Shown: positions 17,598 through 63,850 of the stretch, in pieces
Layout: every line of letters starts with the position of its first letter
Position numbering within the stretch: position 1 is the first letter of the stretch
Assembly: GCF_044647545.1 (NCBI RefSeq)
Contig: NZ_CP172818.1
Length of the DNA: 64,000 nucleotides
Strand: one strand, 5' to 3'
Source of the DNA: Escherichia coli
GTDB lineage: Bacteria > Pseudomonadota > Gammaproteobacteria > Enterobacterales > Enterobacteriaceae
The notes under the pieces: generated by a model
Database searches by the model: none
Told to the model about the DNA's origin: nothing
The model's input: the letters and a program-made list of their open reading frames with translations, nothing else
Translations under genes and position numbers: made by a program

Positions 17598-18563
17598 ATG
17601 TCAGACTATCAAATGTTTGAAGTACATGTGAACCAAATTGAACCGCTTACCGAACAGGTGAAACGCTTCACGCTGGTGGCAACCGATGGCAAACCATTAC
17701 CTACGTTTACCGGAGGAAGTCACGTCATTGTGCAGATGAGCGATGGTGATAACGAGTACAGCAATGCGTATTCACTACTGAGTTCGCCGCATGACACCTC
17801 TTGTTATCAGATTGCCGTTCGGCTGGAAGAACACTCGCGCGGCGGTTCCCGCTTTTTACATCAGCAGGTAAAAGTGGGCGATCGGTTAACGATTTCAACG
17901 CCTAATAACCTGTTTGCGCTAATTCCCTCGGCCAGAAAGCATCTGTTTATCGCGGGCGGTATTGGTATCACCCCTTTCCTGTCGCACCTGGCAGAGTTGC
18001 AATACAGCGACGTCGACTGGCAGTTACATTACTGCTCACGAAATCCAGAAAGTTGCGCATTTCGTGATGAGCTAGTCCAGCATCCGCAGGCTGAGAAAGT
18101 TCATTTTCATCACTCATCAACCGGAACACGACTGGAATTAGCGCGATTATTGGCGGATATCGAACCTGGCACACATGTTTATACCTGTGGCCCCGAGGCG
18201 CTAAATGAGGAGGTAAGAAGTGAAGCTGCGCGTCTGGACATCGCCGCCGATACGATGCACTTTGAACAATTTGCGATTGAAGACAAAACCGGCGATGCAT
18301 TTACCCTGGTGCTTGCCCGTTCCGGAAAAGAGTTTGTGGTGCCGGAAGAGATGACTATTTTGCAGGTTATTGAAAATAATAAAGCAGCGAAAGTGGAATG
18401 TTTATGTCGTGAAGGGGTATGCGGAACCTGCGAGACGGCAATACTGGAAGGTGAAGCTGACCATCGGGATCAGTATTTTAGCGATGAAGAGCGTGCCAGC
18501 CAGCAAAGTATGTTGATCTGTTGTTCGCGCGCGAAGGGTAAACGCCTGGTGTTGGATTTGTAG
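17598..18563 (+). CDS. yeaX: Carnitine monooxygenase reductase subunit (CntB-like; FNR-like plus 2Fe-2S ferredoxin)
   Basis: 321-aa ORF with C-terminal plant-type ferredoxin Cys cluster (CRxGxCGTC). Confidence 0.9.
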   Translation: MSDYQMFEVHVNQIEPLTEQVKRFTLVATDGKPLPTFTGGSHVIVQMSDGDNEYSNAYSLLSSPHDTSCYQIAVRLEEHSRGGSRFLHQQVKVGDRLTISTPNNLFALIPSARKHLFIAGGIGITPFLSHLAELQYSDVDWQLHYCSRNPESCAFRDELVQHPQAEKVHFHHSSTGTRLELARLLADIEPGTHVYTCGPEALNEEVRSEAARLDIAADTMHFEQFAIEDKTGDAFTLVLARSGKEFVVPEEMTILQVIENNKAAKVECLCREGVCGTCETAILEGEADHRDQYFSDEERASQQSMLICCSRAKGKRLVLDL

Positions 18564-18566
18564 TTT

Positions 18567-18610
18567 GCCGAAGCCGGATGTGGCGCTGAGCGCACCCAGT
18601 CCGGCTTCGG
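18567..18610. terminator. Extended palindrome between convergent yeaX and rnd (bidirectional terminator or REP-like)
   Basis: 11-bp perfect inverted repeat CCGAAGCCGGA/TCCGGCTTCGG around a second near-palindrome GCGCTGAGCGC. Confidence 0.4.
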
Positions 18611-18616
18611 AAGATT

Positions 18617-19766: not shown

Positions 19767-19795
19767 TCAAAAAAAACGCCGGATTAACCGGCGTC
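19767..19795 (-). terminator. Rho-independent terminator after fadD
   Basis: Minus strand reads ACGCCGGTTAATCCGGCGT followed by T8. Confidence 0.6.
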
Positions 19796-19813
19796 TGACG
19801 ACTGACTTAACGC

Positions 19814-21499
19814 TCAGGCTTTATTGTCCACTTTGCCGCGCGCTTCGTCACGTAATTCTCGTCGCAAAATTTTTCCGACGTTAGATTTCGGTAACTCATC
19901 ACGAAACTCCACCAGCTTCGGTACTTTGTAGCCCGTGAGCTGACGGCGGCAAAAGGTCACCAGTGACTCTTCGGTAAGCGATGGATCTTTTTTCACTACG
20001 AAGATTTTCACCGCTTCACCACTGGAGCCGGAAGGTACGCCAACAGCCGCGACTTCCTGTACGCCAGGATGCTGCATGACGACATCTTCAATCTCGTTGG
20101 GATAGACGTTAAAACCGGAAACCAGAATCATGTCTTTTTTACGATCGACAATGCGCAGGAATCCTTCTTCATCCATCACCGCGATGTCGCCGGTGTGTAA
20201 CCAGCCATTTTTGATGATTTCATCGGTAGCATCCGGACGCTGCCAGTAACCCAGCATCACCTGCGGTCCTTTGACACAAAGCTCACCTGGTTGACCCGGT
20301 GGTACTTCGTTGTCGTCGTCATCCACCAGTTTGGCTTCCGTCGACGGCACCGGCAAACCGATGCTACCACTATGATAATCAATATCATACGGGTTAACGC
20401 TGACCAGCGGCGCACACTCGGTCAGGCCATAACCTTCCAGCAGATACTGTCCAGTCAGTTTCACCCAACGTTCTGCCACCACTTGCTGAACAGGCATCCC
20501 TCCGCCTGCGGAAAGATGCAGACTGGAGAAATCCAGCTGCTGGAACTCTTTATTGTTCAGCAACGCATTGAACAAGGTGTTAACGCCAGTGATAGCGGTA
20601 AACGGATATTTCGCTAACTCTTTTACCAACCCTGGAATATCGCGCGGGTTAGTGATAAGCAGGTTCTGCCCACCCAGTTCGATAAACAGCAGGCAGTTAA
20701 TGGTCAGGGCAAAAATGTGATACAGCGGCAGCGCCGTCACCACCAGCTCTTTGCCCGGATGCAACAGCGGACCATAGGTCGCGTTAACCTGTTCCAGGTT
20801 CGCCAGCATATTGCGGTGAGTCAGCATCGCGCCTTTCGCCACACCAGTGGTACCGCCGGTGTATTGCAGGAAAGCTAAATCTTCCGGCACCAGTTCGGGT
20901 TTGACGTACTGCATCCGGTAGCCGCTGTGCAGGGCGCTACGAAATGAAATGGCATCTGGCAGATGGTATTTCGGCACCAGACGCTTGATGTATTTAACAA
21001 CGAAATTGACTACCGTGCCTTTTGCCGTAGATAGCTGATCGCCCATACGGGTCAGAATTACGTGCTGAACGGCGGTTTTATCAACCACTTTTTCCAGAGT
21101 GTGGGCAAAGTTAGACACGATAACAATCGCCGATGCGCCGCTATCGTTAAGCTGATGCTCAAGTTCACGCGGGGTATACAACGGGTTAACGTTTACGACA
21201 ATCATCCCGGCACGCAAAATGCCAAACAGCGCCACCGGATATTGCAATAAATTAGGCATCATCAACGCAACGCGATCGCCTTTCTTCAGTCCCAACCCTT
21301 GTTGCAAATAAGCGGCAAACGCGCGACTGCGTTCTTCCAGTTTGCGGAAGGTCATCACCTCCCCCATATTCACAAACGCGGGTTGATCGGCGTAGCGCGC
21401 GACCGACTGCTCAAACATATCTACCAGAGATTGATAACGGTCAGGGTTGATCTCCGTCGGAACGTCCGCGGGATAACGGTTAAGCCAAACCTTCTTCAA
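19814..21499 (-). CDS. fadD: Long-chain fatty acyl-CoA synthetase
   Basis: AMP-binding signature ([15 protein letters not shown]); 561 aa from a non-ATG start (LKKVWLNRY...); ORF track Met at 21565 is upstream of it. Confidence 0.9.
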
Positions 21500-26211: not shown

Positions 26212-26251
26212 CAGGACGCTTTTAATCACATATGAAAAGCGTCCTTTTTCT
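26212..26251. terminator. Hairpin terminator between convergent yoaC and yoaH
   Basis: AGGACGCTTT...AAAGCGTCCT stem followed by T5. Confidence 0.5.
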
Positions 26252-26303
26252 CACAATCAAATAACCATCGGCTTCTATAACGAAAGCGATACGGGTTAGT
26301 GTG

Positions 26304-37194: not shown

Positions 37195-37330
37195 CCCTCA
37201 TTTGGGGAGTAGCCGATTTCCAGATTCCGGAAATGTACGTGTCAACATACTCGTTGCAAAACGTGGCACGTACGGACTGAACACTTTCAGTCAGGCGAGA
37301 CCATATGCACATCAATCGCTATGCCTGCAT
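37195..37330 (+). promoter_or_regulatory. yybP-ykoY-type Mn(2+) riboswitch in the mntP leader (approximate bounds)
   Basis: Long structured leader with conserved-looking blocks TTGGGGAGTAGCCG (37201-37214) and CAGGCGAGACC (37291-37301) about 120-220 nt upstream of the mntP ATG. Confidence 0.5.
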
Positions 37331-38796: not shown

Positions 38797-38889
38797 GACA
38801 ACTCCGGCAGGATACTAAAGGCCGCAAGTGTAACGCGAATCACGCGGCGGGCAAATATCCGAACGCCTGGAGCGAAGATAAAGCAAAGT

Positions 38890-38916
38890 AAAAAGCCTCG
38901 CATTCGGCGAGGCTTT
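38890..38916 (-). terminator. Rho-independent terminator after cspC
   Basis: Minus strand reads GCCTCGCCGAATGCGAGGC followed by a T run. Confidence 0.6.
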
Positions 38917-38961
38917 ATAGCGAGATTGAAGCGTATTCACACTTCAGATCAGTGGATTCGA

Positions 38962-39171
38962 TCAGATAGCTGTTACGTTAACAGCTGCCGGACCTTTCTG
39001 GCCGTCCTGAATTTCGAACTCAACGTTCTGACCTTCAGCCAGAGTTTTGAAGCCATTACCCTGGATAGCGGAGAAGTGTACGAACACGTCTTTGCTGCCA
39101 TCAGCCGGAGTAATGAAGCCAAAACCTTTAGACTCGTTGAACCACTTAACCTGACCTTTAATCTTTGCCAT
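38962..39171 (-). CDS. cspC: Cold-shock-domain protein CspC
   Basis: 69-aa [23 protein letters not shown]... with RNP1/RNP2 motifs. Confidence 0.95.
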
Positions 39172-39183
39172 TTGAAAAATTCC

Positions 39184-39327
39184 TTAGATTGTTTTCTTCG
39201 CCCGCAGGCATAACATAGATAAAACTGACACATTACTGCATGAGGCACCAATATAAGGCTCGGCAGAGAAGCGGTATTCAACGTCAACGTGTTTACTCAG
39301 GACTTCTTTACTGAAAATGCCACACAT
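39184..39327 (-). CDS. yobF: Small protein YobF (47 aa), co-oriented just upstream of cspC
   Basis: Hand-translated: [47 protein letters not shown]. Confidence 0.65.
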
Positions 39328-39996
39328 AAACAGAACTGTACCTCGTTTAACCCGAAATCTGTTATCACATACAACGTTAATTATGGCAAGCCATTTTTAA
39401 ACATGTCTCGATCAGACGCACAAATCTCGATACGTCTTCCACTTTTTTTGCACACTTATGCAACGGAATACGCGCCGATATATCATTGTGCTTAACCTTG
39501 CCAGTTCAGGCAGATACTTAAACTGACGTATTTTCTAACATAGTTCAATAAGTTCAGTTGTTCCAGGCCAGTGGGAGAAGTTATTACATAGTGCGTGCAA
39601 TATCACATTTTCTGCTATGCAATGAATAAAAAGTTATATCACTTTTTCTCATAAAACAGTCAGTTAACGGCCACCAATTACCCCAAAGAGAAGTCAATCC
39701 CCAATGGTATTGTAAATTTAAAATAAGAAAAATTGATGAATGCGCAAAAAAATCAAGAGAGAAACGTTTCGCTAATAAATAATACCATGCTTAATCACAA
39801 ATCCGATGTAAACATCCTAATAAATTAATGGGCTAAATATCTTTTTCTGATATCCCGTTACGCAAATAAATAATATGATAATTATTTGAAGTCAGACCAG
39901 AGTTTTAATTTGAAGCAGTTGCACCATGACAGTGCGTATAATCAGGATGAATTGAGTAACCCTTCAACGACGGGGTTACTCAAGATTGAGGAAGGA

Positions 39997-54799: not shown

Positions 54800-55072
54800 A
54801 TAAAGTCAGCGAAGGGAATGCTTCTGGCTTTTAACAGATAAAAAGAGACCGAACACGATTCCTGTATTCGGTCCAGGGAAATGGCTCTTGGGAGAGAGCC
54901 GTGCGCTAAAAGTTGGCATTAATGCAGGCTTAGTTGCCTTGCCCTTTAAGAATAGATGACGACGCCAGGTTTTCCAGTTTGCGTGCAAAATGGTCAATAA
55001 AAAGCGCGGTGGTCATCAGCTTAAATGTTAAAAACCGCCCGTTCTGGTGAAAGAACTGAGGCGGTTTTTTTA
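54800..55072 (+). ncRNA. ryeA: sRNA RyeA (SraC), antisense to SdsR (5' end not determined)
   Basis: Plus-strand terminator at about 55032-55072 (CCGCC...GGCGG then T7) downstream of the SdsR locus, consistent with the known cis-antisense arrangement. Confidence 0.35.
54840..54942 (-). ncRNA. sdsR: sRNA SdsR (RyeB)
   Basis: Minus strand reads GCAAGGCAACTAAGCCTGCATTAATGCCAACTTTTAGCGCACGGCTCTCTCCCAAGAGCCATTTCCCTGGACCGAATACAGGAATCGTGTTCGGTCTCTTTTT, matching the remembered SdsR sequence including terminator hairpin and U-tail; boundaries within a few nt. Confidence 0.65.
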
Positions 55073-60783: not shown

Positions 60784-61443
60784 TTACTCCGCCAAAGTAC
60801 GTTTTTGCTGTTCGAGATCGCGTTCAATGCCTTCACGAACGTCCTGGGGGATTTTCAGCGCATCACCCAGTGCATTCAGGTAACTGCGTTCCATAAAATG
60901 GTCAATATCAATAGCCGCGCAGCTCAGGAAATAGATTTCCAGCGCCTCTTCTTCATTGCGAACCCCGGTAGCCAGACGTTGTGGATCCAGCGGTTGTTCG
61001 ATTGCCTGCTCAATGAGTACACGCCCCTGCTCTTCCACGCCGGCTTCACGCAATTGCTGGTCGATTGCCGCACGTTCTCTGGCATCAATATGACCATCAC
61101 TTTTAGCGGCAAAGACCAGCGCAAGGATCAAACGTTCCGTACGCTCATCCAGCGGCGTACTTTGCGCGCCAAACTGCGGTTCGTCCTGATGCGCCGCGCG
61201 AATTTTATCTTTGTATTTATTCCACAGCACCGTACCCGCTACCGCTCCGCCGCCAACCAGTAACGCGTTGGTGCCATATTTCGTAAGAAGTTTACGTGCT
61301 GATTTATTTGCGACCAGCAGCCCAGCCAGTCCGCCTAATGCGCCTGGCACTAAAAGTTTGCCCAATCCCTGATCCGCAGACGAGGAGACAGAAGAACTGC
61401 TTTGCCCAAGCAGGGATTGCAGTTGATTTAACCAGTTAGCCAT
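60784..61443 (-). CDS. yebE: DUF533 inner-membrane protein YebE
   Basis: 219-aa ORF. Confidence 0.85.
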
Positions 61444-61657
61444 ATTTGCTCCTCAATAGCCATTTTTAGTGCCTGTAGCATAGCGGATGAGGATGTCAGA
61501 AAATGTATATCGAGACAAAAGATGCGCAAATAAGCGAGTCGGTAGGCCGTTATTCAAAGAAATTCGCGCCAGGTAAGGTGTTTACTGTATATCAGGTGAT
61601 AAGGGTATTTTAGGTGAAAGTAGTTTGACGTTTTGAGTGGCACTGTTTGATGCTGAT

Positions 61658-61746
61658 TGCCCGATGCGACGCTGTTGCGTCTTCTCAGGCCTACGATTGT
61701 GGTGTGTTGTGGGCGGACAAGGCACTCGCGCCGCATCCGCCGACGG
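61658..61746. repeat. Pair of inverted REP elements (BIME-like) in the yebE-yebF intergenic region
   Basis: 61658-61694 reads TGCCCGATGCGACGCTGTTGCGTCTTCTCAGGCCTAC (REP-like); 61711-61746 is a second REP-like copy in inverse orientation. Confidence 0.5.
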
Positions 61747-61768
61747 TCAATCGAATTATCAGAAGCCA

Positions 61769-62173
<405 letters not shown>

Positions 62174-63794: not shown

Positions 63795-63815
63795 ACCCGG
63801 CAAAAAAACGCTACA

Positions 63816-63846
63816 AAAATGCCCGATCCTCGATCGGGCATTTTGA
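63816..63846. terminator. Bidirectional terminator between convergent purT and eda
   Basis: GCCCGATCCTCGATCGGGC hairpin flanked by an A run upstream and TTTT downstream. Confidence 0.55.
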
Positions 63847-63850
63847 CTTT

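Follow-up and report, generated by a model that had tools for sequence, protein, structure and literature searches.

The spacer between yebE and yebF in Escherichia coli carries a single BIME-2-type unit, in which a z2-type REP and a y-type REP lie in inverse orientation and are joined by a short linker. The identity and family of this REP pair, its copy number, its age, and its lineage-specific decay were established in the analyzed stretch of 64,000 nucleotides of E. coli DNA (hereafter the window) and in related genomes. Quite probably, this unit, derived from an insertion of ~230 nt and slowly decaying, caps the 3' end of yebF ahead of Rho termination. By analogy with known transcript ends, the pair would likely work as a barrier to 3'-exonucleases before Rho termination, and it may plausibly stabilize yebF mRNA.

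Gene annotation was taken from RefSeq for strain FDAARGOS_497, which is 100% identical to the window; the yebE-yebF spacer, 325 nt long in the window, is 100% identical to that of FDAARGOS_497 and 96.6% identical to that of K-12. Since both genes are located on the minus strand, the spacer is 3' of yebF and 5' of yebE. The features of the locus and the evidence for each are as follows:

60784-61443, minus strand: yebE (RefSeq annotation of FDAARGOS_497)
61444-61533, minus strand: ancestral yebE upstream region with promoter and 5' leader (conserved across genera; outside the repeat)
61534-61768: Escherichia-specific insertion of ~230 nt, approximate extent (spacer lengths and spacer reading across genera)
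61571-61652, minus strand: C-rich, G-poor single-copy tract, candidate Rho-utilization region (base composition, copy number)
61658-61694, minus strand: z2-type REP, 37 nt (z2 model, structural rule, Rfam naRNA4 half, fold)
61695-61708: linker GATTGTGGTGTGTT joining the GTAG-proximal ends of both REPs (sequence; strain variation)
61709-61742, plus strand: degenerate y-type REP (y model R1, Rfam naRNA4 y half)
61743-61768, minus strand: spacer that separates the foot of the y hairpin from the yebF stop codon at 61771-61769 (sequence and fold)
61769-62125, minus strand: yebF (RefSeq annotation of FDAARGOS_497)

Both REPs lie on the yebF transcript, and the distance from the stop codon to the y hairpin is 27 nt for the core stem or 23 nt for the extended pairing. 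The mechanically called yebF open reading frame starts at 62137 (122 aa, MEKNMKKRG...), compared with the RefSeq start at 62125 (118 aa). A sigma-70 promoter scan of the yebE-yebF spacer returned no match at the threshold used. Elsewhere in the window, Rfam matches were found to SraC/RyeA with the antisense SdsR/RyeB, to sroD, and to a cspA-type thermoregulator leader, and a manganese riboswitch match reached 41.9 bits, slightly under the gathering score of 45; the positions of the Rfam matches are 54836-54980, 19770-19855, 38887-39347, and 37196-37292.

The z2 and y types of E. coli REPs, or palindromic units, were reportedly described by Stern in 1984 and by Gilson and Bachellier. The REP types, the BIME classes, and the TnpA(REP) requirements used here follow Ton-Hoang 2012 (PMC3333891) and PMC8266576, and the structural rule for REPs (GTAG, a 7-bp stem, an AA/GC bulge, and a closing stem) was taken from the same sources. 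When applied to three other K-12 regions (150 kb in total), this rule yielded a canonical collection of 39 elements. Covariance models for the y type (R1) and the z2 type (R2) were built from 9 and 11 distinct K-12 REPs, respectively, all 20 of these canonical REPs coming from loci distinct from the yebE-yebF locus, and the entire 64-kb window was scanned with filters off.

Both REP-like palindromes reported for this spacer in the preliminary description are present, and the first of the two strings quoted there, TGCCCGATGCGACGCTGTTGCGTCTTCTCAGGCCTAC, corresponds exactly to 61658-61694. On the minus strand, this segment is the top z2 match in the 64 kb (47.8 bits, E 2.6e-15), is aligned over positions 1-37 of the 37 positions of model R2, and is the only one in the window that passes the structural rule (GTAG, 7-bp stem, and AA/GC bulge), with one outer-stem mismatch; it is a clear z2-type REP. 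The segment 61709-61742 on the plus strand is the best-fitting y-type match in the 64 kb (R1, 20.4 bits, E 0.0015) and scores just 13.9 bits on the z2 model, i.e., below its y-model score. It is a degraded y-type REP; having no intact GTAG, it represents a decayed rather than an intact y REP. The second quoted string was correctly placed (61712-61741, in the window GGCGGACAAGGCACTCGCGCCGCATCCGCC) and misread at one base: the reverse complement of GGCGGACAAGGCACTCGCGCCGCATCCGCC begins GGCGGATG, not GCCGGATG as quoted (GGCGG, not GCCGG), the misread base shifting the sequence toward the canonical consensus. A systematic search with REP consensus models, as that description had proposed, returned a match of each type.

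Neither covariance model found a further REP match inside the yebE-yebF spacer, and no other score in the window came near those of the pair, the next-best match being located at 436-463 (15.4 bits). This match, in an intergenic gap and on the minus strand, corresponds to a short GTAG-tagged palindrome, GTAGGCCCGGTAGCAAGTGTACCGGGCC, which aligned to the z2 model except for the model's middle part (E 0.004) and is probably a small or truncated REP-like element. The REP head motif, with one mismatch allowed, occurs three times in the window compared with 0.30 expected from shuffles, while a relaxed structural rule without GTAG gave ~125 matches in 64 kb and was too permissive to be informative. 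At 18556-18612 the window contains a long hairpin, GCCGAAGCCGGATGTGGCGCTGAGCGCACCCAGTCCGGCTTCGG, with GTAG before it and a T-rich stretch after it; in appearance it is terminator-like, and its core is similar to a REP head (GCCGGATGTGGCGC). A third REP remnant considered at ~61540-61560 (ACGGCCTAC) was supported by neither model and is not conserved in other Escherichia species.

Searched by blastn, a 101-nt segment of the locus matched 144,098 places in all, the median per E. coli genome being 28, whereas the adjoining 128 nt had a median of one place per genome; the segment therefore belongs to a dispersed repeat family and is surrounded by unique sequence. Plasmids account for 64 of the 144,098 REP-like matches; on the 50.9-kb E. 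coli plasmid NZ_CP195334.1, a 43-nt match (26214-26256) is 88% identical to the z2 half of the query. High copy number, dispersal, and an extragenic position, here between yebF and yebE, are the marks of the REP family, and the pair is an ordinary element of a known kind, REPs and BIMEs being among the best-catalogued E. coli repeats. A MITE or an ERIC element was rejected because the non-REP part of the insertion is single-copy; no ERIC-like sequence was seen. The copy of the NC_000913.3 annotation consulted contains no REP repeat_region features, including in the yaaX-yaaA stretch used as a control, where a REP is presumably annotated in the GenBank record. A literature search found no paper in which yebF is mentioned together with REPs.

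On the minus strand, the z2 arm reads GTAG-GCCTGAG-AA-GACGC-AACA-GCGTC-GC-ATCGGGC-A. It shows all features of the E. coli z2 type: a length of 37 nt, GTAG at the 5' end, an outer stem of 7 bp, the AA/GC bulge, an inner stem of 5 bp (GACGC/GCGTC), and a loop of 4 nt; GTAG (61694-61691) and the bulge are both intact, and the outer stem includes one G-U pair and one G.A mismatch. The y arm, which reads GT-G-GGCGGAC-AA-GGC(A)-CTCG-(C)GCC-GC-ATCCGCC-G on the plus strand, retains the outer stem, the AA/GC bulge, and the inner stem of the E. coli y type, an imperfect palindrome of ~35 nt, and like z2 it is extragenic and high-copy. It differs from an intact y REP in a C.A mismatch atop the outer stem (G-U on the mRNA) and in a divergent loop with several changes, and it scores 20 bits compared with 42-54 bits for intact y REPs. 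Its tag is GT-G in the window, with the A deleted, and CTGG in K-12. Position 2 of its stem is G-C instead of C-G, with pairing retained; this position is variable between REPs yet complementary (PMC3333891). The GTAG ends of the two arms face each other across the 14-nt linker. Each arm folds as its own hairpin (z2, -19.6 kcal/mol, z -5.25; y on the mRNA strand, z -2.37), while the full 129-nt 3' region folds little better than shuffled sequence (z -1.54).

The E. coli TnpA(REP) needs GTAG, with no change tolerated, and also requires a stem mismatch for binding; a full substrate additionally has CT cleavage sites in the iREP or the linker (PMC8266576, PMC3333891). Given this strictness, the z2 arm alone is a plausible RAYT binding site in this strain, as the y arm lacks the A of GTAG. 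The proposal that the pair is a target of RAYT transposases is therefore plausible for the z2 arm, with its intact GTAG, and fails for the y arm; as far as can be read from the sequence, the z2 arm plausibly still carries what TnpA(REP) binding needs, and the y arm of the window does not. The accompanying proposal that the REPs attract insertion sequences was not borne out, as both IS1 insertions found in the spacer lie 40-70 nt outside the REPs. They occur in strains Eco_70239 and 50EVAW (equivalent to window positions ~61617 and ~61588, respectively), and they are independent copies in opposite orientations, located in the unique C-rich tract before the yebE promoter.

BIME-2 elements are composed of y and z2 REPs in inverse orientation with short variable linkers and form tandem arrays (PMC3333891). 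The yebE-yebF unit resembles them in its composition (a minus-strand z2 and a plus-strand y, their GTAG ends separated by a 14-nt linker), in the short variable linker, and in its intergenic location. Binding and cleavage by DNA gyrase are a further property ascribed to BIME-2. The yebE-yebF unit differs in comprising one unit with a degraded y arm; tandem copies with s/l/r flanking motifs were not found in the spacer, since a single unit without a tandem array leaves these motifs unrepeated. BIME-1 requires a z1 REP as well as an IHF site within a long L linker (PMC3333891), and a BIME-1/RIP assignment was rejected because the partner REP is of the z2 type (37 nt, 47.8 bits) and the linker has 14 nt. 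With naRNA4 (REP325, RF02564) the unit has in common two REP types, each arm aligning to the corresponding half of the model (28.3 bits for the z2 half and 24.5 bits for the y half). However, these are half-model matches compared with a gathering score of 59.5 bits, and membership was rejected; in naRNA4 the REPs are arranged head-to-head with a 13-nt linker and in six repeats, whereas at the yebF locus the GTAG ends face each other in one unit. Both the covariance models and Rfam support the earlier reading of an inverse-orientation REP pair forming a BIME-like unit between yebE and yebF.

For the cross-genus comparison, species-representative genomes were scanned with YebE, and loci with yebF beside yebE were kept. 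The yebF-yebE spacer has 279-327 nt in five Escherichia loci, compared with usually 93-101 nt in 51 non-Escherichia enterobacterial loci (85-128 nt in 49 of the 51, the other two having 261 and 412 nt). A REP-model match was absent from this spacer in all 51 non-Escherichia loci, while the REP pair occupies the equivalent position in four other Escherichia lineages. In the non-Escherichia spacers that were read (Citrobacter, Salmonella, Pseudescherichia, Kosakonia, and Enterobacter), the conserved block ATTTGCGCATCTTTTG, located upstream of yebE, starts at most ~10 nt after the yebF stop codon. The contrast in spacer length, together with the REP-free outgroup spacers, indicates that ~230 nt were inserted in an Escherichia ancestor, and the presence of the pair in Escherichia and its absence in Salmonella, Citrobacter, and other genera date the event. 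Besides the REP pair, the insertion comprises a spacer of 26 nt and ~120 nt of unique sequence. Judging from the spacers compared, it is old, Escherichia-specific, and flanked by the yebF stop codon and the yebE promoter block.

Two Salmonella and four Citrobacter loci have strong REP pairs (up to 52 bits) on the purT-eda side of yebE, ~2.1 kb upstream of it (locus positions ~250-380). After purT, the window has a plain hairpin with a T-run, GCCCGATCCTCGATCGGGC (63822-63840, within 63795-63850). The REPs on the purT-eda side in Salmonella and Citrobacter, compared with the plain hairpin in E. coli, indicate that the REP occupancy of neighboring spacers is genus-dependent.

In a comparison of the locus across strains, also proposed in the preliminary description, 5425 of the 5426 complete E. 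coli genomes contained the spacer; neither in these 5425 genomes nor in the four other Escherichia lineages was the REP pair completely deleted. Between the window and K-12, the REP bodies do not differ. The linker is the most variable part across strains, showing substitutions, a 1-nt indel, and a 10-nt deletion, the last in strain 23CRST013 (equivalent to ~61699-61708), in which both hairpins are intact. The score of the y arm is 42-43 bits in three of the other Escherichia lineages, E. whittamii included, and 23.8 bits in Escherichia sp. MOD1-EC7003; within E. coli it scores 32-34 bits where GTAG is intact, 24.6 bits in K-12, and 20.4 bits in the window. It still carries the full GTAG in MOD1-EC7003 and in the ZJ3920, SCU204, and PBP5 lineages. 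The z2 arm, with 47.8 bits in the window, scores 23.6 bits in ZJ3920 and 16.8 bits in SCU204. In ~1,100 genomes the REP segment is 80-95% identical to that of the window, and in the two of these that were sampled the z2 arm scores 17-24 bits. These scores show that the two arms have decayed independently, with different halves affected in different lineages and the hairpin potential kept. The weak y arm and the eroded z2 arms suggest relaxed constraint rather than a needed function.

Among 11 sequences compared, standard pairs occupy 94.8% of the pair cells, compared with 32-44% when the partners are slid. In these sequences, every cell of the y helix (100%) is paired on the mRNA strand, several of the changes being G-U wobbles or compensatory, and double changes occur at two pairs. 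With 11 related sequences and two compensatory pairs, the covariation is suggestive only.

Neither hairpin is followed by a T-run, and a terminator scan of the minus strand of the spacer found no intrinsic terminator. The tract 61571-61652 has a (C-G)/length value of 0.25 over 80 nt, i.e., the 99.9th percentile of 80-nt windows on both strands, and the equivalent tract in other Escherichia species is likewise C-rich and G-poor, with a different sequence. Transcripts terminated by Rho have their 3' ends at stable stem-loops lacking a U-tract, some of them REPs; the rut sites are located a short distance downstream, and the RNA is trimmed by PNPase and RNase II (PMC6061677). The yebF locus has in common with these 3' ends a stable hairpin after the stop codon without a U-tract and a tract with C exceeding G directly downstream (PMC6061677), and this match of architecture favors the REP pair as a 3'-end cap or boundary. 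Under such a mechanism, RNA polymerase would read through both REP hairpins into the C-rich, G-poor tract, within which Rho would terminate transcription. Trimming by PNPase and RNase II would follow, as far back as the REP hairpins, and these would protect the 3' end of yebF (or yebGF) and keep transcription out of the yebE promoter. The yebF 3' end is not among the entries listed in the 3'-end mapping supplement of Adams 2021, the files of which may be truncated.

A rather unlikely alternative is that the pair is a neutral relic, i.e., a selfish REP/BIME copy inserted once, fixed by drift, and devoid of any role, whose hairpins have not yet been eroded. In keeping with it are the missing GTAG of the y arm in the lineages of the window and K-12, the erosion of the z2 arm in ZJ3920 (23.6 bits) and SCU204 (16.8 bits), and a linker that tolerates indels, the 10-nt deletion included. 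However, a relic of this kind accords poorly with the lack of a single complete deletion among 5425 genomes and four other Escherichia lineages, with the y helix, all cells of which pair on the mRNA strand and several changes in which are G-U wobbles or compensatory, and with a position after the stop codon that, together with the C-rich tract, fits the known 3'-end architecture. Improbable is a role at the DNA level, in local supercoiling or nucleoid organization, with the unit serving as a site at which gyrase would bind and cleave independently of transcription, or as a site for further REP-binding factors, e.g., Pol I or HU with naRNA. In composition, z2 and y joined by a short linker correspond to BIME-2, and a subset of BIME-2 elements is enriched in gyrase cleavage sites, with a preference for y REPs (PMC6379681). 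Nevertheless, the locus has a single unit, whereas BIME-2 elements form tandem arrays (PMC3333891), the y arm preferred by gyrase is precisely the degraded one here, and the cleavage sites occur in just a subset of BIME-2 elements (PMC6379681).

Two further explanations concern the yebF mRNA itself. A translation-coupled REP of the type of Liang, Rudd and Deutscher, in which a hairpin near the stop codon would stall the terminating ribosome and lower YebF, is highly improbable: on the mRNA strand, a REP does directly follow the yebF stop codon, but the foot of the hairpin is 23-27 nt from this codon, outside the stop-codon distance given for translation-regulating REPs by Liang 2015, as quoted in PMC12306157. 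It is scarcely credible that the pair is an intrinsic (Rho-independent) yebF terminator or an IHF-binding BIME-1/RIP element. The hairpins are G+C-rich and follow the stop codon, as those of a terminator would, but an intrinsic terminator is rejected because the T-run is missing, in line with the empty scan of the spacer minus strand; for BIME-1/RIP, a z1 REP and a long IHF linker are required, whereas the REP is z2 and the linker has 14 nt. The preferred reading is that of a REP pair capping the 3' end of yebF ahead of Rho termination.

Taken alone, the finding carries little weight, given that K-12 MG1655 has identical REP bodies and that all but one of the 5426 complete genomes contain the spacer. 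Its modest added value is evolutionary and consists in the genus-level dating of the insertion and in the reciprocal decay of the arms: the locus offers an immobile REP pair whose arms decay separately in each lineage while the hairpin potential persists. It may also be used as a test case for whether a REP together with a C-rich tract is enough for a transcript boundary. The gene yebG is DNA damage-inducible. Tentatively, and with considerable doubt, we propose that the ~230-nt insertion may have brought a ready-made transcription boundary, i.e., a REP-capped, Rho-terminated end that would uncouple the yebE promoter from yebF/yebG read-through. If true, the locus would represent a datable BIME insertion that rewired an operon boundary, with reciprocal decay of the REP arms later across E. 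coli lineages.
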